From positions 2,767 through 66,766 of the forward strand of contig CARVLU010000005.1 in NCBI GenBank assembly GCA_949082785.1: DNA of 64,000 nt. The letters run 5' to 3'. The position numbers and the translations under genes are program-made. The notes beneath the pieces were generated by a model. It had not been told where the DNA came from. It ran no database searches and was given only the letters and a program-made list of their open reading frames with translations. This stretch comes from an uncultured Alphaproteobacteria bacterium (GTDB lineage: Bacteria > Pseudomonadota > Alphaproteobacteria > Rs-D84). Shown piece after piece: positions 2,331 through 52,795 of this stretch. Every line of letters starts with the position of its first letter. The first letter of the stretch is position 1.

Positions 2331-2387
2331 TTGCCAGTGCCCAAAACCGCAATTTTGTCTTTTCAATCGGGGCTTTTTTATGATATT

Positions 2388-14369: not shown

Positions 14370-14370
14370 A

Positions 14371-15780: not shown

Positions 15781-15851
15781 AATTCCTTTCCTTCTGTCCT
15801 AATCATAGAACAAATGACGAATCACAGGCAAGCGGAAAAATCAGTCTGAAA

Positions 15852-16898: not shown

Positions 16899-16925
16899 GA
16901 ATACCCCACCCTTGGTTAAAAAACA

Positions 16926-18065: not shown

Positions 18066-18084
18066 ACCCCGGGCCCGTCGTTTA

Positions 18085-19173: not shown

Positions 19174-19228
19174 AAAAATCCCCTTTCTATGCTGACCATT
19201 TTATCACAAAGAAATCGCAAAATAAATG

Positions 19229-19531: not shown

Positions 19532-19587
19532 AATAAATGGCCCCCCTTTGGGGACCATTATATCATATTGCGGATACAAAATTCACA

Positions 19588-25598: not shown

Positions 25599-26902
25599 TT
25601 CTTTTTAATCCACCCGGCGGCCCGGCCGATTTTTTTGCCCCAGTCGTTTGCGCCGCGCCACACGGACTTGGAATCACGGGTCACCTGGTTATACAGGCCA
25701 TCCATCCCGGACGCGTATTTCTTTAACTGGGCGCGTGTGCGTTCAAAAATTTGAATCATCAGATAAAAAGTCAGTATCGCCGACAGCCACAAAATCGAAT
25801 GCTGGCCAAATCCCATGGACGAATTGGCAATCTGGGGCACATTGGACATGGCGGCGCCACCGGCCGCGACATTGAACACCGACGTATTCCATTGGAACAG
25901 TGCGCGAATAATCGCGATATTGATGCACAGAATAAACGCGCACGCAATCATGGTGATGACCAATTGTTGCAATGCCTTTATAATACCGGAAAACACGGGC
26001 CAGATGTCGAACCATTTGCTGGCATCTTTGGGTTTTACCACCCAGACCAAGACCTGGAACGGGTACAAAATCAACGCCATACCGAAATTAAAGATGCCCT
26101 GGATAATCAGCAACGCCATAAATAAATTGCACCCGACAAAGGTCGATATCAGCAAGATGCCCGTGATTAAATTCAGAAAATCTTCGCCCCCATGCGGTAT
26201 CAGCGATAATAACCCGCGCAGCCCCCGGTTCACGAAATCAAATCCGCGCTTAATCACCTGATTATTTGCATGGGACAAATCCGACACCGGCTGGACCAGG
26301 AATGCGCAGCTTTCCGCGCTGATCCACCCCTGGACAACAACGTCGGGCGGGCATTCGATGCGCGGCGCCGCACTGCCCGGGACCGACACGGCATCACTGA
26401 TTTGTTCGGTATATATCGCCCCCAGTTGCAGGAACGGGTTCACCACCCATTCGGTGACATAGACCGGCTTAATCTGCAACAAAACCGTTGCGGCGATAAT
26501 GGCACGCAATGCGGGTTTGAACATATTTTCGGCAATGGTGGTGCCACTGGCCTTGCCATCCCACATTTCGCCGCCGCCCGAAAACCCGAAAAATGCCAAC
26601 CAATCCTTTGGGAAAAACATCTTGACCAGATACAGCCCCATGGTCAATCCCAAAAATCCCCAGATTAAAACATAGATAATCCCGCCGCCGCGCCCGACAA
26701 AGAAATCATACGCCCCCGTCGCCACCGCCATCAGCGCATCCAGCACCAGCGGCACAAACGGCGCCAGGTTCAGCGCGTCCACAATCCCACCCATCGCATG
26801 GGCCGGACCACACCACAGCGCCACCCCCGCCGCGACACAGGTCGCGCGGCCAATATAACGACAAAGCCGCGATACAAACAGACTCATTCCCCCAAATTTC
26901 AC
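25595..26902 (-). CDS. Polytopic membrane protein M4 (paralog family M1-M5)
   Basis: 435 aa. GTG start at 26902 or ATG at 26887. Signal-like N-terminus ...WCGPAHA. Contains VVNPFLQLGAI and loop Cys pair (RIECPP...AESCAF). C-terminus ...AAGWIKKK. Confidence 0.8.
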   Translation of the reverse strand: MKFGGMSLFVSRLCRYIGRATCVAAGVALWCGPAHAMGGIVDALNLAPFVPLVLDALMAVATGAYDFFVGRGGGIIYVLIWGFLGLTMGLYLVKMFFPKDWLAFFGFSGGGEMWDGKASGTTIAENMFKPALRAIIAATVLLQIKPVYVTEWVVNPFLQLGAIYTEQISDAVSVPGSAAPRIECPPDVVVQGWISAESCAFLVQPVSDLSHANNQVIKRGFDFVNRGLRGLLSLIPHGGEDFLNLITGILLISTFVGCNLFMALLIIQGIFNFGMALILYPFQVLVWVVKPKDASKWFDIWPVFSGIIKALQQLVITMIACAFILCINIAIIRALFQWNTSVFNVAAGGAAMSNVPQIANSSMGFGQHSILWLSAILTFYLMIQIFERTRAQLKKYASGMDGLYNQVTRDSKSVWRGANDWGKKIGRAAGWIKKK

Positions 26903-26952
26903 TTAATTGATTTCAATTATATCACATTTGGGACAAAATATGATATAGTTAA

Positions 26953-28248
26953 ATGGCAATGTGGCGCTTTAAAAAATTTTGGATTGTATTTTTATCCTTT
27001 CTGCCGTTTGGTGCGGGGGCGGTGGCGCCGTTTGTCGTGGGTGGTATTGCGGGTCTGGGGGTGATTGCGGGATTTTCCATTTATCGCACCGCCGCACCAG
27101 TCAACATGGCCGACGCGATGAATTTCTTTTCCACATGTTGGACGTGCCAGATGTTTTCCGACATTATGGCGACAATGTCGAATTTACTGCCGCGGGCGTA
27201 TCACGCCATCGGCACCGTGATAATTCCGTTTGCGGCGGTGTTGACCGCGATTTGGTTTGCCTGGCAATTGGTGTCGGGATATATGAATGCGCGCGTCGAT
27301 GACCCCTGGACCATCAGCAGTAATTTCGGCAAACACCTGATAAAGCTGACGTTTGTCATATCTTTGCTGGCGTTCCCGTTGCCGCGCCTGATAACAACGG
27401 TCGCCATTGAACCCATTTTTAATATCGGATTATCGCTGAACCGGATTGTGGCGGGCGACGACAAATTTGCCGAATGCGTTGTTGCAACCGCCATCGCCGA
27501 CCCGGTATCAATCGACAGTGAATCTGCCGCACGCGGCGCGTTTTCACCACGTCTGCGTCATAATTTGGCGTGCGAATTGGCCAACGTTCATCAAATGACG
27601 GGTCTGGGGATGACGGTGGGCTGGACAATGCTGAACATGGCGTTCAACGAAAAATACATGCACAAGATTATGTGGGACGTGCCGATTTTCCCAAATATAC
27701 CGGTGTTCTTTGCGGGGTTGCTGATTTTGGTGCTGTTCTTTTTTGCATTGCTGCCGGTGCCGCTGTATTTCTTGGACGTCTTTATCACATTGTCGATGGA
27801 TTTAATCATGTTGCCGCTGTTTCTGCTGGGCTGGCTGTTCAAGGGATGGTCGATTATCCCCGGCGGCGGCGGCAAATCGATTCAGGCGATTATTAACGAC
27901 GTCGTCAAATCGACGGTCGGGATTGCGATGGTGGGCGTCTTTATCACGTTTACGGTGATGTTCCTGAATTCTGTTTTTGGCAATTGGGATGGTGCATCCG
28001 CATTGGCTGCGGCGATGGCGTCGGGCGATTCGACAATTTTGATGGACGGCCTGATGATGCGCAACGACAGTTTGATTACAATTGTGCTGATGGGGCTGTT
28101 TATTGCGATGTTTATGTCAATGATTCCGGCCCTGGTCCAGACTTTGTTTAACATTGAAATATCCCAGACAACGTATGAAAAAACGAAAAAGAACCTGGAT
28201 ATCATGTGGCAAAACATCAAAAAATGGTACGCCGCGATAAAAAAATAA
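26953..28248 (+). CDS. Polytopic membrane protein M5 (paralog family M1-M5), divergent from M4
   Basis: 431 aa. Contains STCWTCQMFSDIM, VAIEPIFNIGL, loop Cys pair (FAECVV...LACELA) and IMLPLFLLGWLFKGW. C-terminus ...WYAAIKK. Only 50 bp separates it from the M4 start. Confidence 0.8.
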   Translation: MAMWRFKKFWIVFLSFLPFGAGAVAPFVVGGIAGLGVIAGFSIYRTAAPVNMADAMNFFSTCWTCQMFSDIMATMSNLLPRAYHAIGTVIIPFAAVLTAIWFAWQLVSGYMNARVDDPWTISSNFGKHLIKLTFVISLLAFPLPRLITTVAIEPIFNIGLSLNRIVAGDDKFAECVVATAIADPVSIDSESAARGAFSPRLRHNLACELANVHQMTGLGMTVGWTMLNMAFNEKYMHKIMWDVPIFPNIPVFFAGLLILVLFFFALLPVPLYFLDVFITLSMDLIMLPLFLLGWLFKGWSIIPGGGGKSIQAIINDVVKSTVGIAMVGVFITFTVMFLNSVFGNWDGASALAAAMASGDSTILMDGLMMRNDSLITIVLMGLFIAMFMSMIPALVQTLFNIEISQTTYEKTKKNLDIMWQNIKKWYAAIKK

Positions 28249-38511: not shown

Positions 38512-38538
38512 AAAAAATCCCCCGTGCGGGGGGATTTT
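38512..38538. terminator. Bidirectional terminator AAAAAATCCCCC-GTGC-GGGGGGATTTT; overlaps the stop of the 38537 gene
   Basis: Same sequence family and upstream flank as 30987-31015. Confidence 0.8.
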
Positions 38539-40813
38539 ACGTGTTATTTTTTTTGACGCATTTGCCGGAACTTTCTTCTGTGCCAACCGGGCATTGCGCG
38601 TAACATTGGTTGTTATACGGTTTGTACCCTTCGAAACACTGACAATGGTCGTTGACGTATCTGTTGACGCCGGCCGTCCCGGATGTCTGGGTGTAATTCG
38701 AATTATCGGGGCACAGCAACGACTGATAAAACATTTTGGAAATGCTTTCGATACATTGCTTTTCGCCATCCGCGCCATCGGTACAGGATTGCGGATCCTT
38801 TTCAAAAACGGCGTACGAACACGTCAGTGCGACATTCCGGCATGCACCGGTCATCACCTTGTAAATACTGTCAACACTGGCCACATTCGACCATGCGTTT
38901 ACCTGGGTTACCTGTTGGTTATAACATGTGGCGATTTCGGTCATACATGTGGACGCGTAATCGGAAATAATCTTGCGCTGGGCGGCCTGGATATTGACCA
39001 TGGCACGCTGGATATAATTCACGACAACATCGTTGTACGGCTGATAAGAATCGTTTTTGTATGTGTATTGCTGACACTTGTCCAACACCGCACGGCACAG
39101 CCCGTTGTCGGTCACCTTTTGACCGGTGCCGATTTTATCCATCAAATAACGCGCGATACATGCACCGTCGTTGCCGGTGCCCTTTTTGTCGGGGTTGGGC
39201 GCGGCCTTGCACATGTTGGTTGTTATCTGTTGCGACATGGCGTTACTTAAATATACACTGTCGATATTGGCATTGCTGTAATTGGTGGCATCCATAAACT
39301 GCTTGATATGCGTGATATTCTGCCCCAGAACGACATTGCCATTTTCGTCGATATATTTCTTGGTCGGGTCCAAACATTTCGTGTAATCTTCGCCGCAAAC
39401 CATTTCGTCGGTCATGCACGTGTTCAGCGCGGAAATACATCCCTTGGCATCGTATTGATTTTTATTTTGCAGAACGGCCAGTCGCGCCTTTTGCAGCATT
39501 AAATTCGCACTGCGCACATTGGATTTCAATGTGTCGTTCATTTTCGACAGACCCTGTTCGTATGCCAGGCAATCCTTGTCAATGGCCAAATCGTAATTGG
39601 CGGTAATTTGTTGGGATGTGGCGCCGACATCCTTGCACTGTTTCAAAATCGTGTTACAGCGCTTTTTGGCCGCGTTGTACAAATCGGCCCCGCGCATATT
39701 GGACAAACTGGATGAATTGTTACTTAAAAAATCCAGGCTGAACAAATCGCTGGAATCGGACGAAAAATCCAAATCCAGGTCCAATCCAGAAAAACTGTCG
39801 CCGGATGAATACGACGCGGAACTGGTCGGATCCTTAATCATGTCTTCGATTTGTTGCAACATGTTGCGGGATTCGGTCGTATCGCGTTTCCCCGACAGGG
39901 CTTCTTCGGCCTCGGTCGCGGACATAATGGCGCGGATTTCATCGGCCGACAAACCGATGTAACGGATACGCTGGGCAACTTCGTTCAATTGGGTGTTGGC
40001 GTCTTTGACGGCCGATTCCACCTTGGTATAACGCGACAAATTCGATGAACAGCTGCACCGTTTTTGATTGGCATCGATAACCGCACAGAACTGGTCCATG
40101 CAATCGTTGTATTGTTCCTGGCACGATTTGTTTAATTCCGCCGTCTGTTCCAGGCGTTCTTTGGCATCTGCAATGGTTTCACGGGTGGTGACTGTCGTGG
40201 CGGCGCGGGTTTGGACGGCGCGCACTTCGTTGCCAATATTCGACCCGGTTTGAACGCCGGTGCCGGCAATGGTGGCCCGGCCCCCAACTTCGGCCGTGCT
40301 GGGGCGCAGGGTGACGCCCGCGCGACGAACGGCGGCGGTGTTGTTAATGCTGGCCGCGCTGACGCGGGCATTACGACCAACCGTATTCACGGCGGCATCC
40401 AAATTATCACGGGCGGACGTCGCACCCGCCGGCGCGGCGGCGCGCGAATACGCGCCCGATTGACGCGCGGTCGCCCCATCACGGGTTGTGGGCGTGACAT
40501 CGGGCGTTGTCGAAACGGTGCGTGAAATGGTGGCCGAACGGGACGGTGTCACGTCCGACGCCGCCGCGCGCGCGGTAACGCCATCGGACGCGTCCATTGT
40601 TGTGGCGGCGGGTGCGGACGGGGTTGTTGCGACATCCCGCTTAATCGGGGTGCGGGTTGCAACCGCCGTGCGGGCCACGGTGGCGTCGGTATTGGCGGCG
40701 TTTGTATTTTGCGAATTTGATGTCGGCAGACTGCGCGACGGCGTCACGGCGGCGGCAAATTCACCGGACGCGCATAATGTCATTAAGAATAAACAGGTTG
40801 CAACCTTCTTCAT
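38537..40813 (-). CDS. Large secreted Cys-rich protein (758 aa), unknown family
   Basis: Signal peptide MKKVATCLFLMTLCASGEFAAA. Ala/Thr/Ser/Arg-rich N-terminal third. Then repeated C-x6/7-C-x4/5-C motifs (SCQEQYNDCMDQFC, GCISALNTCMTDEMVCGEDYTKC). C-terminus HCQCFEGYKPYNNQCYAQCPVGTEESSGKC. Confidence 0.8.
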   Translation of the reverse strand: MKKVATCLFLMTLCASGEFAAAVTPSRSLPTSNSQNTNAANTDATVARTAVATRTPIKRDVATTPSAPAATTMDASDGVTARAAASDVTPSRSATISRTVSTTPDVTPTTRDGATARQSGAYSRAAAPAGATSARDNLDAAVNTVGRNARVSAASINNTAAVRRAGVTLRPSTAEVGGRATIAGTGVQTGSNIGNEVRAVQTRAATTVTTRETIADAKERLEQTAELNKSCQEQYNDCMDQFCAVIDANQKRCSCSSNLSRYTKVESAVKDANTQLNEVAQRIRYIGLSADEIRAIMSATEAEEALSGKRDTTESRNMLQQIEDMIKDPTSSASYSSGDSFSGLDLDLDFSSDSSDLFSLDFLSNNSSSLSNMRGADLYNAAKKRCNTILKQCKDVGATSQQITANYDLAIDKDCLAYEQGLSKMNDTLKSNVRSANLMLQKARLAVLQNKNQYDAKGCISALNTCMTDEMVCGEDYTKCLDPTKKYIDENGNVVLGQNITHIKQFMDATNYSNANIDSVYLSNAMSQQITTNMCKAAPNPDKKGTGNDGACIARYLMDKIGTGQKVTDNGLCRAVLDKCQQYTYKNDSYQPYNDVVVNYIQRAMVNIQAAQRKIISDYASTCMTEIATCYNQQVTQVNAWSNVASVDSIYKVMTGACRNVALTCSYAVFEKDPQSCTDGADGEKQCIESISKMFYQSLLCPDNSNYTQTSGTAGVNRYVNDHCQCFEGYKPYNNQCYAQCPVGTEESSGKCVKKNNT

Positions 40814-41132: not shown

Positions 41133-44100
41133 TTAATCAACCGTTACGTTGATGATATCGCCATAGCTGCCGGCTTCGTCGCCACCGACATAGCATGTGA
41201 TGTGGTTACCAACACTGTTCATCCATGCTTCATAGGCCGCGCGTTGGTCCGCATTCAGGCTGGATTTCTGGATATCACCCGTCAGCTTGTTCAGCATGAT
41301 GCCCCCACCGACGCCACCAACAACCGTACCGATTGCCGTACCAATCCACTGGTTGTTCTTTTCAGCGTTAGCAGACTGTGCATCTTTTTCAACAGCCGAT
41401 TGACAGCTGGCTGATAATGCTGCAACAGCTTTATCCATACCATTTTCACCGTCTGTATATTTGACCGTGGTACCATCTATGGCTTTCAGTGCATTGATTC
41501 TGCCAGACATGTCAGCCAGACTCTTTTCATTCACCTTTGTCGCCATATCTTTCAGATAGACATAATTGCTTTTATAACTATTTTCGTCATAGATTTGACC
41601 GGCGATATAAGTGCAGTTCTGTTTCAATGTTTCAAACGATGTTTCGTTTTTGGCATTGGAATTCAGCCCCGTCAGTTTACCAAACACAGAACCGTTTTGG
41701 ATACCATTGCCCAGGTAAGCGCCACCGACACCGCCGCCAATCGCCCCCAACGCCGTCAACCAATTACGGGTTGTCTGTTGGGATTCGCGTTTGCCCGCAA
41801 CCGCTTCGTCGGCGACCGCGTTGGCGATGCTTTCCAGTGCACTGGCCGGAATCCAGCTGCCGCATGTAAATGTGTCACCGGTTGCAAAGTATGCAGTCGC
41901 CCAGTCTTTGCCTTCGCGCAGAACTTCCTGAATCCGTTTGTCGTCGGATTGGATGGTCACGCGCACGCGGCAGAACGAACCGTACAAATCATTGCTGGCC
42001 GTGAACTGGGTCGATTTTAACCCGTTGACCGAATAATTCTTGGGCACCTTGTTCGATTTCAGTTTCACCCACATGAATGTACTGCCCTGGTCACGATTCC
42101 CCATAACGCCACCGGCGTTGCCCGCCATACATGCGTTCTGTTCGCGTGTCAGTTTGGCGTTATATTTCGCCTGGGCTTCTTTTTCCAGGTCATAGACCAG
42201 GTCTTTGAACAATGACGACGCGGCCTGGCTTTCCACATATGTGGTGTAAGAGATATAGGCCGGTTTCGTGCACAGTTCGGTTCCGCACATGTCAACGTTA
42301 CAGCGGCCCGTGTCGAACCCGCCGGATTCGGCCGTGCACAACAGATTGCCGTTGGCGTCAATATCTTGGACCTGTTCGGTGGTGGCGGTCATCTTGGACG
42401 CGGAACCGGCATCAAACCAGCCATCGCGGACGGTGTTTGCCGAACCCCAAGACGATGCGGACGCATTGTTCGCCATTTTCAGTTTGTTGCGTTCAATCGC
42501 CAGATGTTCTTCGCACACGGACGCGTTTTTGACCGTATCCAGACACAGCCCCAGAACAATGGTGTAATCCAGTACACCGCCAACCTTGTTCATGGACTTG
42601 TCAAACGACGCGTCGCCGGTGTTGGTCAGCGAAGAATAGATATCCGTACGATTGCGATAGCAATTGACATAATCCGCCCCGCACAGGTTTTTCACGCACC
42701 CGCTGGCGACGGCCTGGCACTGGCGCTTCATATTGGCGATGGCGGCATCGCTGTAATTGTTGGCCAATGCGGCGTTCAAACTGGCAACCACGCCAATCGG
42801 GTCGTTTTCCGCCCCGTCATCAAATTCGGGGAACAATGTGTCGAACGCGTCATTATTAATATAGGCATAGTTATACGGGCCCGTTGCATCCGGGTTCGCC
42901 GCCGCATATTTACAATACGCATCGGTGTTGACAATCGACGCACATCCGGTTTTGATTTCATTATATGTCGCCGGGGCGTTGATGGATTTGTCGCGGGAAC
43001 CAAACACCTGGGAATAACAGGCGGCGCCACTGCCACTGCCGCATGTGCGCATGGCGCATGCCTTGATGGTTTCGGTGCACTTTTGCTTGGCCTTGGTATC
43101 GAATTTATCAACCAAATCGGCAATCTTGGCCTTCATCCCGGAATTCATGCGGGCGTTGTACGCTTCGTCATAAATTTCTTCTTGGTTGTCTTCGTCACGC
43201 AACTGGGAACTGGTCGGCATCGCGCCATTGCCCAGGAATGTCGCATAGCAATATTTGTTCGACCCAATGGTGTCCAGGCACGAATTTCTGATGTACGCAG
43301 AAATGCCGGCGCGGCTGATGGTGTCGGTTGCCACAGCATTTGCATCGCCCGCAACGGCTTCGTTGTTATTGATGGCTTCGACAATATTAACGACTGACTG
43401 CGCGCTGTTTTCATAGCATTTGTACGGATTTGTCGCGCACGCGTTCAAGATACACTGGTCCACCACCTTGTAACATGTTGACACCGCATTGACCGCGGCC
43501 AGGGCGGCGCCCTCGGTTATCATTTCGCCGATGCGGCTGGATGCGGCGGGCGTTGTGTTGGTGTTGTTCGACCCAAACAGTTCAATGACGCCATCGCTTT
43601 GGCAACGCGCCAGTGTGGAATCACAGAACACGCGCTGTTTTCTGAATTCTTTGTCGGTGGTGCACAATTCGAAATCGGCGCCACAGACGCTGTCCTTGCG
43701 CAGACAGGATGTGTACCGCTTGACACAGTTGGACGTGTCATATTTGTTGGAAATGGCCGCACCGATAATCAGCTGGCCCAGAACACTGCCGTCTGTGGGG
43801 TATGTATAATCCGTCACTTCGCCATAGCTGTTTTTTGTTGCGACATTGGACAATGCCGTGACGGTGGATGTCCCAAACAGGCTGGACACACCCGCGCCCG
43901 AACACTGGGCCAGTGTGGACAAACACTGCGGCATTTTGCCATGGAATAAAACCTTGGTCGTGCATTCTTCGAAATTGGAACCACAGGCATCACCACCCTT
44001 CATACACGATGTGTACGCATCAATACATTCCGCATTCGCCAACAGCGACGATGTCGTCGTCGATGTTGATGTGTTGGAACTGGTGATGTACGTTGACATT

Positions 44101-44216
44101 GTCGGCATCCGCGATGATGCGGCGCCAACAATGCTGGGGCGCGCAGTCAGGCCAAAAACCGACGGTGCGACCGCAAAAACAGCCATAAAACCAATTGTTT
44201 TGTTCAGAAAAGACAT
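41133..44216 (-). CDS. Very large secreted Cys-rich protein (1027 aa) with tandem N-terminal Cys modules and C-terminal glycine zippers
   Basis: Start moved to ATG 44216 (MSFLNKTIGFMAVFAVAPSVFG). Two ~55-aa modules: C..AYTSCMKGGDACGSNFEECTT...CLSTLAQC...LFG and C..RYTSCLRKDSVCGADFELCTT...CDSTLARC...LFG. Also WLTALGAIGGGVGGAYLGNGI and WIGTAIGTVVGGVGGGIML. Confidence 0.8.
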   Translation of the reverse strand: MSFLNKTIGFMAVFAVAPSVFGLTARPSIVGAASSRMPTMSTYITSSNTSTSTTTSSLLANAECIDAYTSCMKGGDACGSNFEECTTKVLFHGKMPQCLSTLAQCSGAGVSSLFGTSTVTALSNVATKNSYGEVTDYTYPTDGSVLGQLIIGAAISNKYDTSNCVKRYTSCLRKDSVCGADFELCTTDKEFRKQRVFCDSTLARCQSDGVIELFGSNNTNTTPAASSRIGEMITEGAALAAVNAVSTCYKVVDQCILNACATNPYKCYENSAQSVVNIVEAINNNEAVAGDANAVATDTISRAGISAYIRNSCLDTIGSNKYCYATFLGNGAMPTSSQLRDEDNQEEIYDEAYNARMNSGMKAKIADLVDKFDTKAKQKCTETIKACAMRTCGSGSGAACYSQVFGSRDKSINAPATYNEIKTGCASIVNTDAYCKYAAANPDATGPYNYAYINNDAFDTLFPEFDDGAENDPIGVVASLNAALANNYSDAAIANMKRQCQAVASGCVKNLCGADYVNCYRNRTDIYSSLTNTGDASFDKSMNKVGGVLDYTIVLGLCLDTVKNASVCEEHLAIERNKLKMANNASASSWGSANTVRDGWFDAGSASKMTATTEQVQDIDANGNLLCTAESGGFDTGRCNVDMCGTELCTKPAYISYTTYVESQAASSLFKDLVYDLEKEAQAKYNAKLTREQNACMAGNAGGVMGNRDQGSTFMWVKLKSNKVPKNYSVNGLKSTQFTASNDLYGSFCRVRVTIQSDDKRIQEVLREGKDWATAYFATGDTFTCGSWIPASALESIANAVADEAVAGKRESQQTTRNWLTALGAIGGGVGGAYLGNGIQNGSVFGKLTGLNSNAKNETSFETLKQNCTYIAGQIYDENSYKSNYVYLKDMATKVNEKSLADMSGRINALKAIDGTTVKYTDGENGMDKAVAALSASCQSAVEKDAQSANAEKNNQWIGTAIGTVVGGVGGGIMLNKLTGDIQKSSLNADQRAAYEAWMNSVGNHITCYVGGDEAGSYGDIINVTVD

Positions 44217-44289
44217 CCGACTCACTCCGTTATTAATTACTTTATTATAACACAAGCCAGCCGGATGACCAAGGAAAATATATAGATTT

Positions 44290-45264
44290 TTAAGCGTACT
44301 GGGCGTCGTCCAAAATAGCCTTTAATTCCTGCATGTCATCGGGCATACGGGATTTAAAACGCATGGGCGCGCCGGTGGTCGGATGGTTGAATTCCAAAAC
44401 TTCGGCATGCAACATCTGGCCGTCATGTGTTTTCAAAAATTCCAGCAATTCCGGATTGCGCACCGAACCCAATCGCGCCGCCCCCCGGCCATAGACCGGG
44501 TCGCACAGCACCGGGAACCCATGGACCGACAAATGAACGCGAATCTGGTGCGTGCGCCCCGTCAGCAACCGGCACCGCAACAACGATACCCGCGACCGGG
44601 ACCAGGTGTCGGCGACGGCCACCTCTGTATGTGCCGGTTTGCCCCCGGATTTGACCATGGTCATTTTCTGGCGGTTGCGCGACGACCGGGCGATGTTGCC
44701 GGTGATATCCGCACTTTCCCAATTGGGCAATCCCCACACAAATGTCACATATTTGCGCGTCAAATCGTGGGCCGCAAATGTTTTGACCAATTCGCGATAC
44801 GCCGCGTCCGATTTGGCAAAAACCATGACGCCACTGGTATCCTTGTCCAGGCGATGCACAACCCCCGGGCGCGTTTCCCCGCCCAGCGCCGACAAATGCG
44901 TGTGCGCCAAAATATTTTGCACCAACGTGCCCGTGTGATTGCCCGCCGACGGGTACATCACGACACCGCGCGGTTTGTTGATGACGATGATGTCATCATC
45001 TTCGTATAAAATATCCAATTCGAAATCGGGCGCGGGGGCGGCCACGGCGCATGACACGGCCGGCGCCGGAATTTCCACGCGGTACGCGTCGCCCGCGCGA
45101 ACGCGTTCGGACATCTTGGCCGCGGCGCCATCGGTGCGCGCAACCGTGAATTTTTGAATTTCACTGCGTGAATATTCGGGCATCTGGGCCGACAAAAATT
45201 TGTCCAGACGCACGCCTGCATCATCATCGTTTGCCGTGAAAATCCGTTCTTGTATTTCTGACAT
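44290..45264 (-). CDS. rluD: 23S rRNA pseudouridine synthase, RluD/RluA family
   Basis: 324 aa. S4-like N-terminus (RLDKFLS) and catalytic HRLDKDTSGV motif. The start overlaps the upstream stop (TAATG). Confidence 0.88.
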   Translation of the reverse strand: MSEIQERIFTANDDDAGVRLDKFLSAQMPEYSRSEIQKFTVARTDGAAAKMSERVRAGDAYRVEIPAPAVSCAVAAPAPDFELDILYEDDDIIVINKPRGVVMYPSAGNHTGTLVQNILAHTHLSALGGETRPGVVHRLDKDTSGVMVFAKSDAAYRELVKTFAAHDLTRKYVTFVWGLPNWESADITGNIARSSRNRQKMTMVKSGGKPAHTEVAVADTWSRSRVSLLRCRLLTGRTHQIRVHLSVHGFPVLCDPVYGRGAARLGSVRNPELLEFLKTHDGQMLHAEVLEFNHPTTGAPMRFKSRMPDDMQELKAILDDAQYA

Positions 45265-45755
45265 TATTTAAAATCATCCCAATTTTTGCCACGTACGCAT
45301 TTGGCCATATCGACCGTAAATTCCCGGTCGCCCGCAACCGGACATTCCAAAATGCCCGTGGTGGTTGTCTGGATGGCATCTTTCTTGGCGTGGCGCCATG
45401 CAAAATAAACCGTTTTGGGGGCATGCACGCACACCAGGCGCAGCCGGCCGTCCACCTGGCCGCGGGGCGAAATCCAGACGCGAACGCTGTCCGCTTCGCC
45501 GTAACAGGGAAAACTGTCCAAAAAGAACAGAACCAATCCCTGGGGGCCGATTAATTTTTTATCGGGGGAAAAGTTGCCTTCGTATTGGGCCCAGGGCAAA
45601 CCGGTGACGGCCGACCAATCGGTGCTGGTGGAAAAAATGCTGACCCGCGTCGGGGTCGGCGTGGGTTTATCACCAGGCTTGTCCGCATCGGCCGCAATTG
45701 CCGCCCCGCAGAACATCATTGCCATCAATCCCAAAATCATGCGTCGCATTTTCAT
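45264..45755 (-). CDS. Secreted hypothetical protein (163 aa)
   Basis: Signal peptide MKMRRMILGLMAMMFCGAAIAADA. 4 Cys. Operonic with the pilin-like genes and rluD. Confidence 0.65.
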   Translation of the reverse strand: MKMRRMILGLMAMMFCGAAIAADADKPGDKPTPTPTRVSIFSTSTDWSAVTGLPWAQYEGNFSPDKKLIGPQGLVLFFLDSFPCYGEADSVRVWISPRGQVDGRLRLVCVHAPKTVYFAWRHAKKDAIQTTTTGILECPVAGDREFTVDMAKCVRGKNWDDFK

Positions 45756-45764
45756 CCCCCCGCT

Positions 45765-46274
45765 TTATTCCGTCATGTCTTTTAATTCCAGTGTGATTTT
45801 TTTCACCCCGGCGGCCGGCGCCGACAGCGTGTGTGAAAACTGCGCCACGCCCCCCGCATCCAACAGCGTTGCCGACGGCATAAATTTCTGGCGGGCGACA
45901 ACATTGTCATTGGCATCGCGCGACACGACAATCAAATCCGGCACGCCCCAGATTTCATCCGACAGATTCCGGACAATGCCACTGACGACCAGATGGCCCA
46001 CCCCCGCGGCATCAACCACCGTGCGGATATCGGTAACCTGTGCGACCAGTGGTTGCTGGGCGCGGGCGGCCGCCTGGTGACGGGTGACCACGACCACGGC
46101 AAATATCACCGCCGACAACAACGCGCACAGCGCCGCCACAAAGACCAAAAATGTGTTTTTACGCGATGGCGCCGCCACCGTCCAGGTATGCCCGCACACC
46201 GCACACCGCACCGGCGCCGCCGGCGCGCGGTCCAGACTGTATTCCGTCTTGCAAAAATCGCACGTTATTTTCAT
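45765..46274 (-). CDS. ZitP-like protein: MJ0042-type zinc ribbon + TM + DUF3426-like domain
   Basis: N-terminus MKITCDFCKTEYSLDRAPAAPVRCAVCGHTW (CxxC-N17-CxxC). One TM (FLVFVAALCALLSAVIFAVVVV). C-terminal beta-rich domain as in DUF3426. Confidence 0.65.
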   Translation of the reverse strand: MKITCDFCKTEYSLDRAPAAPVRCAVCGHTWTVAAPSRKNTFLVFVAALCALLSAVIFAVVVVTRHQAAARAQQPLVAQVTDIRTVVDAAGVGHLVVSGIVRNLSDEIWGVPDLIVVSRDANDNVVARQKFMPSATLLDAGGVAQFSHTLSAPAAGVKKITLELKDMTE

Positions 46275-46293
46275 GATTGCTTTATACCATATA

Positions 46294-47616
46294 TTATTCC
46301 AAATTCAACTGGCGATATTTTATGCGGACGCGACGCTGGATTTCGGAAATCGCATTCATAAAATCGGCGGCGGTGGCGTTCTTGTTCGCGACGGTCGCCC
46401 CAAACAATTCGGTCGCCGCTGTCCCCGCCACGCGTTCACGCGCCGCAATCGTGGTCGCCATCTGCCCCAGTTCCATAAATGTCACATCCCGCAAATTTGC
46501 CGCCCCGCGATATGCGTCCCAATAATAATCCGGATTTATTGAATCTTCGATTAAATTGCGCACAAACAAACGCGGCGTTATCGACCCGGCAAAGGCCACA
46601 CTGGCAAACACCGCATCAATACGACCGGCCGTCATGTCCAAATTCTGGTTAATCTTTAAAATGGCGGGCCCCATATCAGTTCGAACCGACATCCCGCCCA
46701 GTGTTAAATTCGTGACCCACAAATCATCGGTGGTAAAACTGGAAAATTTCCCCAAATCGTTCAGGGTGAATGTATTTGCAATCTCCATCGAACGGGAATC
46801 CGATGATAACGCACCGGCGACCACCGCGGTTTGGGTTTCAAACTGGCGGTCAATTGTCGTGCGATTTTGGAATAAAACGGTGTCCGCAACGATTGTGTCG
46901 GCGGCCAAGACTTCGTCAAACTGGACCGCGGACGCGTCAAAGAATTTCGCGTTTGTGACGTCATGCCCCCCCAGATTCAGCGATGATTTCATCGTTGCAT
47001 CGGCCGCATTTTCAGACGGCAACCGCCACAGATATTTTGTATCTGCGCGCATCCGCGGGGTTAAATCGACAATACCCCCATTGGCATTAATCCCCAAATC
47101 AACCGCATCGGTGCGCCATGTACCGAACGCGCCGTATGCCCGATTATCTTCGACAAAGCCCATATTATCCCCGCCCAGGTTGATAATTTCACGCGTGCGT
47201 TTGGGCGAAATGTCGGCATCGGTAAAAACAATAATTCCCTGTAACGTTGGCTGGGCCGAATTGGACGCGGATTTCAAGACGCGCAATTGATACCGCGCGC
47301 CCTGGCCGTCGGCCATATCCTGGGGGACGCCATAATCGACCAAGTCCGCCAGATTTACCCGCGTGATATTTTTCCCAACCGGCGCCAGCAACGCATCCTG
47401 GTTATACATGATATAGCGTTCCAGGGACGCCTGGATTAATTCCATCTGCTGGGTCAGGGCGATGTTTTCCGCGCGCGTGACCGCATTTTGCTGATATCTG
47501 AAAACAAATGGGATAATGACCGCGGCCAATGCAACACTTAACATCAATTCGACCAACATCCCACCCCGCTGGGCGGCCGCATCGATTGGCTGTAAAAATT
47601 CTTTGATGTGTTTCAT
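46294..47616 (-). CDS. Large type IV pilin-like protein P3 (440 aa)
   Basis: N-terminus ...AAQRG|GMLVELMLSVALAAVIIPFVF (Gly -1, Glu +5, hydrophobic helix, PF). Beta-rich body carrying SLNLGGHDVTN. Confidence 0.7.
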   Translation of the reverse strand: MKHIKEFLQPIDAAAQRGGMLVELMLSVALAAVIIPFVFRYQQNAVTRAENIALTQQMELIQASLERYIMYNQDALLAPVGKNITRVNLADLVDYGVPQDMADGQGARYQLRVLKSASNSAQPTLQGIIVFTDADISPKRTREIINLGGDNMGFVEDNRAYGAFGTWRTDAVDLGINANGGIVDLTPRMRADTKYLWRLPSENAADATMKSSLNLGGHDVTNAKFFDASAVQFDEVLAADTIVADTVLFQNRTTIDRQFETQTAVVAGALSSDSRSMEIANTFTLNDLGKFSSFTTDDLWVTNLTLGGMSVRTDMGPAILKINQNLDMTAGRIDAVFASVAFAGSITPRLFVRNLIEDSINPDYYWDAYRGAANLRDVTFMELGQMATTIAARERVAGTAATELFGATVANKNATAADFMNAISEIQRRVRIKYRQLNLE

Positions 47617-47622
47617 TGTGTA

Positions 47623-48843
47623 TTATTTCCCCGCGGGTTGGATATCTTTCCATGATGACGACATCAACGCATCGAATTCACCACGCACGGGCGCCGCCGG
47701 AATCGTGGCGCGCGACAAATTAAATTCTTTGAACGACGGGGGCGTGGTTGACGGAAATGTCCACGAACCGATTTTCAGCGGCGGGTTCGTCGAATACAGC
47801 AATTCCCCAGACACCGTCAATCCGAAATTATCATAAAATATCATTTCCTGGGCCGACAGAAATGGTGTGTGCACGCCGTTGACACTGATGCCGTCAAATC
47901 CGCTGATGGTGCGCAGACTGTCCGATTTCAGTATTAAATCACGCCCCACATTAATGGAATTATTCACACTGGCGCGGTCGGTGATGATGCGCCCCGTTGT
48001 CGTGAATTTTTCCCCGTTCAGACGATCGGCGGTAATCGTACGAAACCCGGTCACGTCGCCCGTCACGCGCATGGACCCGACCGACGTCGCATTACCGTCC
48101 ATATTGGCCCCCGCGACAAAGAACACATTGCTGGCCGCCATGTCTTCGGCGGTGACAAAGACGGTGGACGCATCGACAACCTTGGCCGATTGGGCGCGCA
48201 CGGTCGATATGTCATATACATTAAACTGCCCCATGTCCAAATCGCGCATCATAACGTTCAAATCATCTTCGCCCGATGTCCCGCGGTGCAGATATTTCGA
48301 TTTGTCTTCGCCGGAAAAATCACGACTGATTCTGTACACCAAATCACCGGGCTGGAAATCCGGGGCCGCCACCGCCCAAGTATCGCCGTACGCCACGCCG
48401 TCGTCGCCAACCATCGCCGCGGCCGTGCCGATTTGGCGCACAATTTTCGACGTGCGCAAATCACTGTCGCCGCCGGCAAAGCCCAAATACACATCGGTCA
48501 CAGCCGCGCCCCGCACCATATATTTATCAATGAACCCGGCCGACGCCGCATCCGATATCGCCGCCAATTCATCGGGCGCCAATTTTATCTGGGCGTAATC
48601 CGGCCAGCGGTCCTGGTTCATGCGCACGAAATTCAGCGCCGCTTCGCGGACGGCAATAATATTGCGGGCGGCCGAAATATCTTGGATGTCGTGTGTGGTG
48701 TCTGTTATCTGCTTATACACGAACGGCGCCAGAAATGTCACCACCCCCAGGGCCAGTAACACTTCCAACATGCTGGCGCCGCGCATGTCGCGCGGATTTG
48801 CGTCGGCAAAGATGCGTGTTTTATTTACAATCACTGCGCCCAT
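47623..48843 (-). CDS. Large type IV pilin-like protein P2 (406 aa; alternative start 48786)
   Basis: N-terminus ...DMRG|ASMLEVLLALGVVTFLAPFVY (Gly -1, Glu +5). Contains RDLDMGQFNVYD. The ORF-track start overlaps the P1 end by 23 nt. Confidence 0.7.
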   Translation of the reverse strand: MGAVIVNKTRIFADANPRDMRGASMLEVLLALGVVTFLAPFVYKQITDTTHDIQDISAARNIIAVREAALNFVRMNQDRWPDYAQIKLAPDELAAISDAASAGFIDKYMVRGAAVTDVYLGFAGGDSDLRTSKIVRQIGTAAAMVGDDGVAYGDTWAVAAPDFQPGDLVYRISRDFSGEDKSKYLHRGTSGEDDLNVMMRDLDMGQFNVYDISTVRAQSAKVVDASTVFVTAEDMAASNVFFVAGANMDGNATSVGSMRVTGDVTGFRTITADRLNGEKFTTTGRIITDRASVNNSINVGRDLILKSDSLRTISGFDGISVNGVHTPFLSAQEMIFYDNFGLTVSGELLYSTNPPLKIGSWTFPSTTPPSFKEFNLSRATIPAAPVRGEFDALMSSSWKDIQPAGK

Positions 48844-50176
48844 CCATCATACATTTTTTGATATCAATGCGGTGTTCCAAACGTTGCCAGTAAACATATT
48901 GGCAAATCAAATACTGGGACAGCGACCGCTGATTATACACCTTGCCCAGGGAAGCAATAATCGACCGGCAATCGACCGTGTTGGATTCCGATGCGGCCGG
49001 ACGGGCCAAAATTTTGAACGCGCCGTTATCGACACCCGAAACCAGCGCATCGGGCAATATCGACGTATCGGCCGGACGCACATCGATAATCACGCGGCCC
49101 GACGCCCCGTCCAACAACGCGTCCGATGTTTGGTCGCGCAGCGTGATGTTGGAAATGGCCAGATTGTCCACCTCTATCCCACTGCGGGCGGCATATTCCA
49201 ATGTGTCGGGACTGATGTAAACATCCTGGCCGCGGGACGCGTTGATAAACGACGCAATTTCCAGCGTATCGACCGACAGATTGATTTTATCCGACACAAC
49301 GTTGCCGCGCACGTTCCATTGGGGCGGGCCATAAAAACTGGTGCGGCCGGCCGTCATGGAAAAGTCATAGACAGACGCCGCCCGCGACACGAAATTACCC
49401 GTGTCACCAAACCGCGAAATGGTTTTGGCATTCACACTGGACGCCGCCAACACCCCACGCGTCACCGTCAATGCGGCGGTGCCATCGGCACTTTGGAATG
49501 TGGTTTTGGTGGCGGATAAATTATCAATGTTGTTGCGGGATTTTCGGCCGTTTTCAACGCCCACAATGGACAACGTGTCCATCTGGCCAGATTCAAATTC
49601 CCCGTTGCGCGCAAACGCCGTGCCGATATTGTCCATCACGAAATTGCCCATATCCAAATCGGCCAGAAATCCGTTTTCATCCAGATTGGTTTCGTCGCGA
49701 CGCACAACGTCGGAAAATTCTTCGTCCAGCGGCACGGCCAAGACAACCGCATCATCGGCGGCGTGCGCATAAAATCCCAACCGGCGTGCCATTTCCGCGC
49801 GCTGTAACCCGGACAGTTTTCCACCCGACACGACCAGACGCGCGGTCACCAATTGCGGCGTCTTTTCAATTTCCAATGCGACATCCTGGCCCAGGGCCGT
49901 TCGCGCCACCGCCCCCAGCGGCAATCCATACGGTTCCAGCGTATCTGCAAACGCATTCCCTGCAATCACCGTCGTCCCATACGCCAACTGGCCCGCATTT
50001 TCCCGCACGAACAAACGCGCGGCGGTCTGGGCGGTTTCCAGTTGCTGGGTCACGGCAAACATTTGGGAATTTCTGTCACGGTCGGCCAATTTTTGCGCAA
50101 AAAAAGGCATAAAGGCAAATATCAACGTCACTGCCAACAAAGCCTGCAATAAAAAATTTCCGCTTTGGCGCGACAA
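48821..50176 (-). CDS. Large type IV pilin-like protein P1 (451 aa), Gln at +5
   Basis: N-terminus MSRQSG|NFLLQALLAVTLIFAFMPFF. Contains ADLDMGNFVMDN. Cys-containing C-terminus (CRSII...CQYVY...CMMDGRSDC). Confidence 0.7.
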   Translation of the reverse strand: MSRQSGNFLLQALLAVTLIFAFMPFFAQKLADRDRNSQMFAVTQQLETAQTAARLFVRENAGQLAYGTTVIAGNAFADTLEPYGLPLGAVARTALGQDVALEIEKTPQLVTARLVVSGGKLSGLQRAEMARRLGFYAHAADDAVVLAVPLDEEFSDVVRRDETNLDENGFLADLDMGNFVMDNIGTAFARNGEFESGQMDTLSIVGVENGRKSRNNIDNLSATKTTFQSADGTAALTVTRGVLAASSVNAKTISRFGDTGNFVSRAASVYDFSMTAGRTSFYGPPQWNVRGNVVSDKINLSVDTLEIASFINASRGQDVYISPDTLEYAARSGIEVDNLAISNITLRDQTSDALLDGASGRVIIDVRPADTSILPDALVSGVDNGAFKILARPAASESNTVDCRSIIASLGKVYNQRSLSQYLICQYVYWQRLEHRIDIKKCMMDGRSDCK

Positions 50177-50319
50177 AAGCCGACCCTCCTACGATGCGCA
50201 GGATAGCATTTGAAAAAAAATATTGCAAACAGTTTTCAGATGCTTTATTATCCCAACCGTTGCAGGAAAGCGGCAACAAATGCCGCGGAAAAATGTTCAC
50301 TTCCAAATAAAGAAAAAAT

Positions 50320-50613
50320 ATGCAAAACAAAAAAAGCCAGTCGTCTGTGGGTCAGATGATTCAACGTTGCCACAAATGGCGCCAGAAAAGAAAACAATAT
50401 ATGGACCAGGCACGCCAGACGGCGGACGAAATCGAACGCGAACGCTTGATGCAAACGGCCGAACATTACGGACGCATCGTGGCCGCAGAACAGGGAAAAA
50501 TCGATTCCACCCGCGACCCGCGTGACAAAACCCCGACCATCCCCGCCGACGATGCGATGACATCGGATGATGACGATGCGGGCTTTGCGGATTTTGTGTC
50601 GAATTTGAAATAA
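50320..50613 (+). CDS. Small charged protein, DUF4167-like
   Basis: 97 aa. KRKQYMDQARQTADEIERERLMQTAEHYGRIV resembles the alphaproteobacterial DUF4167 core (..QHAEHY.R). Acidic tail. Confidence 0.5.
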   Translation: MQNKKSQSSVGQMIQRCHKWRQKRKQYMDQARQTADEIERERLMQTAEHYGRIVAAEQGKIDSTRDPRDKTPTIPADDAMTSDDDDAGFADFVSNLK

Positions 50614-50681
50614 AACTTATCACTTTAATTGTTGAAATCTGACTTGGTTTTGCTATGCTTCTGCAAAAGGAAGTTTATAGC

Positions 50682-52310
50682 ATGGATACCAGTTACACCG
50701 TTTTGGCCCGCAAATATCGCAGCCAGGATTTTCAATCTTTAATCGGCCAGGATGTCTTGGTCAAAACACTGACGACCGCGATTAACACATCGCGTATTGC
50801 GCATGCCTATATCTTTACCGGTATCCGCGGGACGGGAAAAACCAGTACGGCCCGCATTCTGGCCAAGGCTTTGAATTGTCTGTCATCGGACCGCGCGACC
50901 GCGGCACCGTGCGGGACATGCGAAAACTGTCGCGCGATTGCCGCCGGCCAACATATCGACGTTTTGGAAATCGACGCCGCGTCACACACCGGGGTTGACA
51001 ACATGCGTGATATTTTGGATGCCGCGCAATACCGCCCGACCAATGGCCGGTACAAGGTTTATATTATCGACGAAGTCCACATGTTATCGACATCGGCGTT
51101 TAACGCGTTGCTGAAAACACTGGAAGAACCGCCGGCACACGTTATCTTTATCCTGGCGACCACCGAAATCAGAAAGGTGCCCGTCACCATTTTATCCCGA
51201 TGCCAACGATTTGACCTGGTGCGTGTGCCGGTCGAAACGTTAAAGAAACATTTTGCATGGATTGCGTCCCAGGAACAGGTGGAACTGTCCGACGGGGCAA
51301 ATGAATTATTGGCGCGCGCGGCCGACGGTTCGGTTCGCGACGGGCTGTCCCTGTTGGACCAGGCGATTGCCCAAACCGGCGGCCACGTGGACGAAGCGGC
51401 CGTCCTGGACATGTTAAAGCGTGCAGACCGCGGCGTCGTGGTTGATTTCATGCGCACATTGCTGTCGGGTAATGTTGCGGCGGCATTGGACCGCGCGGAC
51501 CAGATTTACACCAACGGTGCGGATTTGGCAATGCTGTTGACCGACATGATGGAATGGACGCACTGGGCGACGCGCATGCACCCGGCACTGCACGCGGGCG
51601 ACGCGACCAATTCGCCATACACCGCGGACCAGCGCGAACAAATCCGCGACATTAATAAAAACGTCAGTTTGAACACCCTGTCCCGTATATGGCAGGTGAT
51701 GGTGGCATCCGTTCCCGAAATGCAGGCGGCCGGCAATCAAAAACAATGCTTTGACATGTTGATTGTACGCTTGATGCACATTGCGGATATGCCGTCGGTC
51801 CCCGAATTGTTACGGCAACAGGCCGCCGCCCCGCGCCCCGCCAATGCGCGTGACGTCATGGCCGCCCGGAATGCGGCGCAGACCACCCCGCAAAGCGCAT
51901 CCGCGCCAACCATGCCATCGGCAATGACAACCGTGGCCGCGCCCCAACCGACTGATGCGCCCGCCGCCCCCACAATCACGATTACATCGGCGACGGAATT
52001 GGCAACCGCCCTGCAATCGGCCAAGGAAATTTTGCTGTATTCATATTACAGCAGCAATATCGAAATCGCCGATTTTGCAGATGGCAAAATGGTCTATTAC
52101 GATCGCAAGGGGGACGCCGATTTCCCGAAAAAGCTGGCCGTCTGGTTACAGGATAAAACGGGCCGCGCGTGGACACTGGAACGGTGCGAACAATCGCCCC
52201 ACAAACAAACCGTCACCGAACAAAAGAAAGAAGAACTGGTATCCGACCCATTGATTGCAAATGCGATGTCGCTGTTTGAAAATGCGGAAATCGTCGGCGT
52301 TTCAAAATAA
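50682..52310 (+). CDS. dnaX: DNA polymerase III subunit gamma/tau
   Basis: Start moved to ATG 50682. Contains YRSQDF..LIGQ, Walker A GIRGTGKTS, zinc module CGTCENC, DEVHMLS and SRCQRF. Confidence 0.94.
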   Translation: MDTSYTVLARKYRSQDFQSLIGQDVLVKTLTTAINTSRIAHAYIFTGIRGTGKTSTARILAKALNCLSSDRATAAPCGTCENCRAIAAGQHIDVLEIDAASHTGVDNMRDILDAAQYRPTNGRYKVYIIDEVHMLSTSAFNALLKTLEEPPAHVIFILATTEIRKVPVTILSRCQRFDLVRVPVETLKKHFAWIASQEQVELSDGANELLARAADGSVRDGLSLLDQAIAQTGGHVDEAAVLDMLKRADRGVVVDFMRTLLSGNVAAALDRADQIYTNGADLAMLLTDMMEWTHWATRMHPALHAGDATNSPYTADQREQIRDINKNVSLNTLSRIWQVMVASVPEMQAAGNQKQCFDMLIVRLMHIADMPSVPELLRQQAAAPRPANARDVMAARNAAQTTPQSASAPTMPSAMTTVAAPQPTDAPAAPTITITSATELATALQSAKEILLYSYYSSNIEIADFADGKMVYYDRKGDADFPKKLAVWLQDKTGRAWTLERCEQSPHKQTVTEQKKEELVSDPLIANAMSLFENAEIVGVSK

Positions 52311-52336: not shown

Positions 52337-52795
52337 ATGAACCAACAATCTGGACGTTCGTTAATAGAAGTTATCGGTATCCTGGCCATATCGGCGATGA
52401 TGGCGGCCGGGGCGGTCACGATGTACGGAATGTTGCGCAATCGTCAAATCCGCACCATTGCGGTTTCCGAATTGGAACAAATTGCAAAAAACACGCGCCT
52501 GTTGATGGCGCCGCGTGGCGATTACACCGGCGTGTCCGTCGATTATCTGATAAAGGCGGGCGCCCTGGCCAATGCGAACGCGCCACTGGGGACGGACAAC
52601 TGGTCCGTCACGGCCACGGCCGACGGGGCGGCATTTTCAATCAATCTGATGGGGCTGTCGGCGGGGGAATGCAATTTCTTGGTTGCGTCCAAAACCGCAT
52701 GGGCGTCCCAGATGCGCGTCAACGGATATGAAACCACCGTCGATGATTATTGTCTGTCAACCGGTGACAACCAGGTTTCCTTTATCGTGGAATAA
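52337..52795 (+). CDS. Type IVa-like pilin (152 aa)
   Basis: MNQQSG|RSLIEVIGILAISAMMAAGAV (6-aa leader, Gly -1, Glu +5). C-terminal Cys pair (GECNFL...DDYC). AAGGAAAGGA SD lies 8 nt upstream. The ORF track starts at TTG 52331. Confidence 0.8.
   Translation: MNQQSGRSLIEVIGILAISAMMAAGAVTMYGMLRNRQIRTIAVSELEQIAKNTRLLMAPRGDYTGVSVDYLIKAGALANANAPLGTDNWSVTATADGAAFSINLMGLSAGECNFLVASKTAWASQMRVNGYETTVDDYCLSTGDNQVSFIVE

Follow-up and report, generated by a model that had tools for sequence, protein, structure and literature searches.

Gene content and organization of the locus

The window analyzed here is a stretch of 64,000 nucleotides (nt) from an uncultured alphaproteobacterium of the lineage Rs-D84 (assembly GCA_949082785.1, contig CARVLU010000005.1, forward-strand positions 2,767 to 66,766). 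The element in question is a tightly packed block of six genes at window positions 44290-50176, all on the minus strand, the first three of which (P1, P2, and P3, hereafter the triad) encode large proteins with prepilin-type N-termini. A smaller pilin of 152 amino acids (aa) is encoded on the opposite strand, 2.2 kb from the triad, and after it come genes for an OmpA-like lipoprotein and a predicted OmpH/Skp-family protein. The features of the locus are as follows:

48821-50176, minus strand: P1, 451 aa, PilV-like modular pilin paralog with four invariant C-terminal Cys
47623-48843, minus strand: P2, 406 aa, PilV-like modular pilin paralog
46294-47616, minus strand: P3, 440 aa, PilV-like modular pilin paralog
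45765-46274, minus strand: bitopic protein with zinc ribbon, transmembrane (TM) helix, and DUF3426-like domain, 169 aa
45264-45755, minus strand: secreted protein with Sec signal peptide and four Cys, 163 aa
44290-45264, minus strand: rluD-type pseudouridine synthase, a housekeeping gene (TIGR00005 match, 1.3e-74)
52337-52795, plus strand: 152-aa type IV pilin, candidate major subunit (Pfam PilS 3e-4, N_methyl 0.014)
50247-50276, minus strand: promoter-like site 5' of P1 (consensus scan only), TTGCCG-18-GATAAT with extended TG

The coordinates and gene order given in a preliminary description of this stretch were reproduced, including intergenic gaps of 6, 19, and 9 nt and the TAATG junction, a one-base overlap of the 163-aa gene with rluD. 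There is also a 23-nt overlap between P1 and P2, the 406-aa form of P2 being the recorded gene call. The start codon of P1 is TTG, with AGGAGG 9 nt before it. The promoter-like site is a match to the consensus alone and carries no evidence of function, and rluD is probably co-transcribed with the upstream genes of the block. For comparison, a set of about 90 related loci was used, including about 80 from Rs-D84 (roughly 80 species) and loci from two deeper lineages.

Prepilin-type N-termini of P1-P3

All three triad proteins begin with a predicted class III signal. The P1 leader comprises six residues (MSRQSG/NFLLQ, the slash marking the cleavage site) and is followed by Gln at +5 and Pro at +18, and the leaders of P2 and P3, 22 and 18 residues long, are predicted to be cleaved at RG/ASMLE and RG/GMLVE, respectively. 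Among full-length homologs, the combination of Gly(-1), Glu(+5), and Pro(+18) occurred in 116 of 120 P3 relatives and 47 of 56 P2 relatives, and its counterpart with Gln(+5) in 118 of 120 P1 relatives. Gly(-1) was present in all motif-matching homologs of the three proteins, down to 25% identity. These counts bear out the class III signal that had been proposed for P1-P3, with Gly at -1 and Glu at +5 (Gln in P1). The conserved Pro-Phe placed near +20 in the preliminary description was likewise recovered, but its position is +18/+19, a shortening by one helical turn relative to canonical pilins (Pro +22). The Pfam N_methyl model did not match P1-P3.

Column identity within the leaders was 0.24-0.38 in P2 and P3 and 0.64 in the six-residue leader of P1, and it jumped to 0.50-0.77 directly after the conserved Gly. 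Variable leaders in front of conserved mature N-termini are the pattern expected of a cleaved leader. A six-frame scan of the window for G-x4-E followed by a 14-residue hydrophobic stretch returned five matches, namely the N-termini of P2, P3, and the 152-aa pilin and two internal false positives. Judged from motif conservation, the prepilin-like N-termini are not due to chance.

The Gln(+5) of P1 was confined to Rs-D84, and the P1 ortholog of a termite-gut lineage carries Glu at this position. The idea that P1 is the tip-most subunit in the manner of GspK, for want of Glu5, is weakened by the Glu5 of this distant ortholog. Membership in the TadE/F/G group was rejected, as PF07811 was not matched and Pro lies at +18 rather than at about +11, its position in the Tad motif. 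Three distant matches, P0332 (796 aa), P0343 (716 aa), and P0333 (471 aa), share this short type of alpha1N (G-1, E+5, P+18, then LY), to which long Cys-rich modules are joined. This suggests that in related lineages the pilin module carries modules of various kinds.

Paralogy and predicted fold

Pairwise profile alignments of the triad proteins with hhalign covered 190-300 columns and were significant in all three combinations: P2 with P3 (99.2%, E 2e-19), P2 with P1 (98.8%, E 5.5e-17), and P3 with P1 (96.3%, E 2e-9). By this comparison, P1, P2, and P3 are ancient paralogs. A two-module layout is common to them. A PilV-type pilin module takes up the first ~215 residues and consists of the class III signal, a ~55-residue alpha1 helix, a beta-sheet, and the signature DL(D/N)MGG..(I/V).N. 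The remaining ~200-250 residues are lineage-specific and beta-rich. The shared motif described beforehand (DLDMG.F.V in P1 and P2, LNLGGHDVTN in P3) was found aligned in all three proteins.

AlphaFold2, given a 39-sequence alignment of 25-53% identity, predicted for P2 a pilin fold with a helix at residues 25-79 (~55 residues) and a beta-sheet, residues 30-170 having a predicted local distance difference test (pLDDT) score above 90. Long beta-strands followed at residues 234-305 with a pLDDT of about 64-79, mostly above 70. The P3 model showed a helix at residues 15-71 and strands at a pLDDT of 70-85, and the whole model reached 51.6. A Foldseek search of the PDB with the P2 model gave no significant match, and the one of appreciable probability was a minor pseudopilin of the Xcp type II secretion system (T2SS; probability 0.77, E 0.5, target template modelling (TM) score 0.51); the same search with the P3 model gave no meaningful match. 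By sequence, the best PDB match of P3 was the N-terminus of a type IV pilin. The conserved class III signal and the pilin fold predicted for P2 (pLDDT above 90) and P3 (helix and sheet) support P1-P3 as oversized type IV pilin-like proteins, with weak backing from Foldseek.

Conservation of the C-terminal modules equals that of the pilin modules. The short repeats noted earlier in the bodies of the proteins did not reappear, as profile self-comparison gave no internal repeats above 30% probability. A likeness to phage tail fibres was also rejected. With the P2 profile, only the tail fibre of phiTE was obtained from the PDB (hmmsearch E 0.34), and a Foldseek search of BFVD with the P2 model reached a best E of 3.7e-3 at a TM score below 0.2. 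The beta-helix considered in the preliminary description was supported neither by a significant tail-fibre-like match in sequence or fold nor by internal repeats.

Homology to the PilV minor pilin

The closest described family was PilV. Shufflon_N (PF04917) represents the constant region of PilV, a 430-475-aa minor pilin and adhesin of the type IVb thin pili of IncI/R64. An alignment of ten PilV members, in which R64 PilV was combined with nine further plasmid PilVs that are 26-61% identical to R64 PilV, was compared with the triad profiles by hhalign. The highest match was to P2 (99.2%, E 7.5e-20), followed by P3 (98.9%, E 1.1e-17) and P1 (96.7%, E 4.5e-10). The alignments spanned 197-226 columns, which start with the class III signal, take in alpha1 and the pilin module, and end at the signature. 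R64 PilV alone matched the P2 profile over 199 columns, signal peptide and signature included (96.3%, E 1.6e-9), and in tblastn it matched triad genes in 15 sources with E values down to 5e-4. In one of the two deeper lineages (locus L090), two of the three triad proteins matched Shufflon_N at an E of about 1.4e-3 and 18.5-18.7 bits, the gathering threshold being 27.5 bits.

The PilV signature, DRLYRFqv.GRPeLN.MhTAIDMGGNnLnN, corresponds to the DLDMG/LNLGGHD motif of the triad. The motif had been compared with those of tail fibres and adhesins; it is the signature of the PilV family, and the similarity to tail fibres was non-significant. According to the profile evidence, P1-P3 are remote homologs of PilV, a known minor-pilin adhesin, and for that reason the best reading of them is as minor pilins. 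The giant minor pilins suggested previously are supported by the class III signal, the predicted pilin fold, and this homology. Since the homology is to an already described minor-pilin family, which the preliminary description had counted as a refutation, P1-P3 are not a new protein class. They are a fixed, triplicated, chromosomal variant of the PilV minor-pilin family rather than a new system.

The 152-aa pilin

The 152-aa protein, which is the recorded gene call, has a six-residue leader (MNQQSG/RSLIE) and two conserved Cys in its mature part. In 72 of 79 orthologs, Gly(-1) and Glu(+5) were in register; both Cys were present in 78 of 79. PilS is the major pilin of IncI1 and IncI2 thin pili. 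The Pfam PilS model matched the window protein with an E of 3e-4 and 21.2 bits (cut-off 22), and 9 of 11 orthologs matched PilS as well, so that the protein appears weakly PilS-like at the sequence level. Arg occupies +1 in most orthologs, a site that usually holds an N-methylated Phe, Met, or Leu.

Distribution and conservation of gene order

Relatives were detected for P3 (863) and P1 (905), all of them unnamed or "hypothetical", and an exhaustive search with P2 among 1.84 billion representatives yielded 104 clusters at 50% identity. A P1 relative was encoded in 250 stretches of a genome collection with one genome per species, two of the records being complete chromosomes (959 and 717 kb). 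The sources of relatives were gut metagenome-assembled genomes named Alphaproteobacteria, "Rickettsiales", or Candidatus Enterousia. Enterousia, to which the organism of the window belongs, is part of the order Rs-D84. Its genomes are smaller than 1 Mb, with most biosynthetic capacity missing and a predicted dependence on partner cells (PMC12306168).

The gene order Skp-OmpA-pilin-dnaX-small open reading frame (ORF), then P1-P2-P3-zinc ribbon-163 aa-rluD-1040 aa, was kept in essentially all of the about 80 Rs-D84 loci. The small ORF of this order (50320-50613, plus strand), located between dnaX and the promoter region of P1, encodes a highly charged 97-aa product with 59-97% identity in 82 loci and is without a family match. 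The same P1-P2-P3 order occurred in the two deeper lineages, a termite-gut "Rickettsiales bacterium" (L084-L087), whose triad is 28-33% identical to that of the window, and L090 from JGI metagenomes. In both, the triad has housekeeping neighbours and is not followed by the zinc-ribbon, 163-aa, and rluD genes. Because only the P1-P2-P3 order is kept in these two lineages, the triad is, on this comparative evidence, an ancient unit, and the remaining operon genes are specific to Rs-D84. Orthology was one-to-one (P1 to P1 and so forth) to about 30% identity, always with three copies in the same order.

Directly downstream of the L090 triad, a coupling protein of the VirD4/TraG type of type IV secretion system (T4SS) is encoded (L090:12772-14940, minus strand; T4SS-DNA_transf, 9.6e-53). 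In IncI plasmids, PilV pili operate alongside a conjugative T4SS.

The zinc-ribbon and 163-aa proteins

In the 169-aa protein, an N-terminal CxxC-x15-CxxC zinc ribbon is followed by a TM helix and then by a DUF3426/FxLYD-like domain in the periplasm. It matched Pfam Zn_ribbon_4 (8e-7), NCBIfam MJ0042 (6e-5), and Pfam DUF3426 (5e-4), the last below the gathering score. Among 14 orthologs, 13 matched Zn_ribbon_4 and 7 matched DUF3426 (best E 5.2e-6). In profile searches, the AgmX zinc-ribbon structure was matched with an E of 7e-4 and a ZitP-type structure (PDB 2nb9) with an E of 4.5e-3; 2nb9 is taken to be the zinc finger of Caulobacter ZitP from its sequence and the report of its nuclear magnetic resonance structure (PMC5182065). 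These matches confirm the ZitP architecture that had been assigned to the fourth gene, with zinc ribbon, TM span, and DUF3426-like domain. The likeness seen in the sequence is one of domain architecture, which is widespread. In Caulobacter crescentus, ZitP regulates biogenesis of the polar Cpa pilus and the positioning of PopZ (PMC5182063). Neither PopZ nor CpaM was noticed in the window, although no search was directed at them. The gene follows P3 in 80 loci and is absent from that place in the two distant lineages. The 163-aa secreted protein keeps its position in 80 loci with 41-70% identity, and no Pfam or NCBIfam family match was found for it.

Proposed mechanism

With moderate confidence, P1-P3 are interpreted as triplicated PilV-type minor pilins that are cleaved by a prepilin peptidase and probably form the joint tip of a PilS-like filament, with C-termini that bind other cells. 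A peptidase encoded elsewhere would cleave after the conserved Gly, and mature P1-P3 would enter a filament of the 152-aa pilin, most likely jointly as a priming or tip complex. The C-terminal modules would then bind surface structures on partner or host cells, and the ZitP-like bitopic protein and the 163-aa secreted protein may be accessory factors of assembly or positioning. In a bacterium with a genome below 1 Mb and a predicted dependence on other cells, the filament would serve cell-to-cell attachment in the way that PilV does in mating-pair stabilisation, a described process in which this minor-pilin adhesin binds lipopolysaccharide of the recipient and is required for mating both in broth and within the gut (PMC9045228). 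Established concepts include both the modular pilin and the heterotrimeric tip built of minor pilins (PMC12075869, PMC8179133).

Several points weigh against this interpretation. An assembly ATPase, a platform protein, a prepilin peptidase, and a secretin were found neither in the 64-kb window nor within 10 kb of the triad in the about 90 loci, which were searched by motif, by clustering the non-window ORFs of all loci, and by tblastn with R64 Pil proteins. Neither the GxGD(V/I)K motif nor a PilU homolog was detected in the window and these loci, the pilL-pilU set (secretin PilN, ATPase PilQ, platform PilR, peptidase PilU) was missing from the window and the fetched loci, and no gsp genes were found near the triad. 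The preliminary description had already reported the window to be devoid of PilB/PilC/PilD/PilQ-type genes, and this held. In a survey of Rs-D84 genomes, type IV pilus genes are reported in a different lineage and none is mentioned in Rs-D84 itself (PMC12306168).

Further reservations concern the proteins themselves. P1-P3 of the window did not reach any Pfam or NCBIfam threshold, and Shufflon_N was not matched at an E of up to 1. The homology to PilV is confined to their N-terminal half, and the C-terminal modules matched neither PilV nor any other protein. With an alpha1N hydrophobic segment four residues short of the canonical pilin length, P1-P3 could pack unlike ordinary subunits. For the 152-aa pilin, hhalign against R64 PilS alone was non-significant and the Pfam PilS score stayed just below its threshold. 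The tip location and the heterotrimer are, finally, inferred by analogy.

A ComFC-like protein with a double zinc ribbon and a phosphoribosyltransferase domain is encoded in the window (13638-14369, minus strand). Proteins of this kind are often tied to DNA uptake, and no further competence genes were seen in the window besides it.

Alternative explanations

The three PilV-like proteins could instead be alternative single adhesins, a hard-wired equivalent of the shufflon with one kind per filament, perhaps as a homotrimer like CofB/TcpB. This would agree with the C-termini of IncI PilV, which vary and through which PilV specificity is diversified (PMC9045228), and with the differences among P1-P3, which lie mainly after the shared ~215 residues. 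Exchangeable adhesins under host-range selection would, however, be expected to vary in number and sequence. In every lineage seen, three copies occur in unchanging order with one-to-one orthology to about 30% identity, and variability in their C-terminal modules does not exceed that in the pilin modules. Conserved C-terminal modules and a copy number that is always three favor a structural unit over interchangeable adhesins, and separate use of the three proteins is accordingly considered unlikely.

Loss of the machinery during genome reduction would leave P1-P3 as relics, uncleaved inner-membrane anchors that show beta-rich domains in the periplasm and form no filament. The missing machinery genes in the 64 kb and in the flanks of the about 90 loci, the silence of the genome survey on such genes in Rs-D84 (PMC12306168), and the housekeeping neighbours of the triad (dnaX, rluD, infB, nusA) are compatible with such relics. 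They are nevertheless judged improbable. The buried Glu(+5) and the Gly(-1) are kept to 25% identity in essentially all motif-matching homologs and the leaders drift up to that very Gly, as would be expected under continuing selection for cleavage and filament packing, and a small pilin with the same motif is retained beside the triad in 79 loci. Type IV pilus genes are often dispersed over genomes.

A T2SS-like pseudopilus, with the 152-aa protein as major pseudopilin and P1-P3 as a GspI/J/K-like tip, might export the Cys-rich secreted proteins encoded nearby. There are at least five large ones in the window, one of them directly downstream, and some extracellular Rickettsiales own T2SS sets with three pseudopilins (bioRxiv 10.1101/479196). 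P1-P3 gave weak N-terminal matches to models of GspK, GspG, and ComGE, PGAP and IMG label a distant family member GspH/PulG, and the top Foldseek probability belonged to the Xcp minor pseudopilin. The specific and far stronger homology, however, is to type IVb PilV (E down to 7.5e-20), and the small pilin matches PilS rather than GspG. With no gsp genes nearby, a pseudopilus is held to be improbable. Equally improbable is the reading that Rs-D84 has no conventional type IV pilus or T2SS set and that a minimal or non-canonical machine assembles the triad and the small pilin, perhaps coupled to T4SS components of the lineage, a VirD4-like coupling protein being encoded beside the triad in L090. 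The triad would then be a heterotrimeric spike that docks this obligately partner-dependent bacterium onto other cells for the acquisition of nutrients or DNA.

Further observations in the window

The window encodes at least five Cys-rich secreted proteins (251-1040 aa), each with a Sec signal and without a family match:

2331-3641, plus strand: Cys-rich secreted protein
6581-7336, minus strand: Cys-rich secreted protein
7336-9345, minus strand: Cys-rich secreted protein
38537-40813, minus strand: Cys-rich secreted protein
41133-44255, minus strand: Cys-rich secreted protein

The 1040-aa member comes directly after rluD, a placement kept in 68 loci. These proteins are possible surface or effector proteins of a partner-dependent bacterium.

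Five adjacent, paralog-like polytopic membrane proteins (428, 477, 400, 435, and 431 aa) are encoded at 21676-28248, four genes on the minus strand and one on the plus strand. None had a Pfam match even at E values up to 5. A homolog of the set (433 aa) lies near the termite-gut triad (L086:19752-21053). The arrangement recalls the tandem VirB6-like genes of Rickettsiales, by layout alone. On a 209-kb contig of the same strain (L088), ~6 kb without called genes were found at 13883-19992, which is about 2.6-8.7 kb beyond position 1 of the window; this stretch is probably a ribosomal RNA operon.

Significance

To our knowledge, no attachment apparatus has been described for Rs-D84/Enterousia, a widespread uncultured gut lineage. 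The triad is a concrete candidate for how these cells hold partner cells. Four pilin genes stand in unchanging order throughout Rs-D84, three of them related to the adhesin with which conjugative plasmids seize recipients in the gut. The PilV family is thereby extended far beyond the plasmids and genomic islands of Gammaproteobacteria, and an annotation is gained for protein families without a name in Pfam, NCBIfam, and the source databases (860-900 homologs each for P1 and P3, fewer for P2).

Comparison with known systems

The 169-aa protein has the same three-part architecture as ZitP of Caulobacter crescentus (zinc finger, TM helix, DUF3426), and its gene is genetically linked to pilin genes. 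ZitP is larger (311 aa compared with 169 aa), and the spacing between its CxxC pairs is x19 instead of x15. In Caulobacter, ZitP acts with the Tad/Cpa pilus and CpaM, whereas the linkage here is to PilV-type pilins (PMC5182063).

Tip and priming sets used for comparison were GspI/J/K of the T2SS, KilL/M/N and TadE/F/G of the Tad system, PilA/B/C of Streptococcus sanguinis, and the CofB/TcpB trimers of type IVb pili. These are pilin-like proteins, some with bulky grafted modules, that are thought to cap or prime the filament (PMC12075869, PMC8179133). Three co-encoded pilin-like proteins are common to such sets and to P1-P3. Unlike the known sets, P1-P3 are all large, of similar size, and mutually paralogous, and no sequence relation to the known tip-complex families was found beyond the generic N-terminus.

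The closest counterpart is PilV of the thin pili of IncI1/IncI2 plasmids (R64, TP114), together with the related PilV proteins of Salmonella Typhi SPI-7 and of PAPI-1-type conjugative type IVb pili. The class III signal is common to PilV and P1-P3, the sizes are 420-533 aa for the PilVs compared and 406-451 aa for P1-P3, and the N-terminal ~200-225 residues with DRLYRF..LN.M..IDMGGN.L.N are homologous. A small pilin, weakly PilS-like in sequence, is encoded near the triad. In contrast, the C-terminal modules of P1-P3 are unrelated to those of PilV, the conserved Cys pair of PilV is lacking in P2 and P3, and alpha1N is shorter than in PilV (Pro at +18). P1-P3 are also chromosomal, in a genome below 1 Mb, and the triad does not adjoin pilL-pilU machinery as IncI PilV does. 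The IncI shufflon, made up of sfx repeats and the Rci recombinase, has no counterpart at the triad: only chance-level short repeats occurred in 44000-51000, the operon contains no recombinase, and orthologs are full-length and colinear. Where the PilV system has one pilV gene, three fixed paralogs are present here, and such fixed paralogs represent an alternative to the shufflon.

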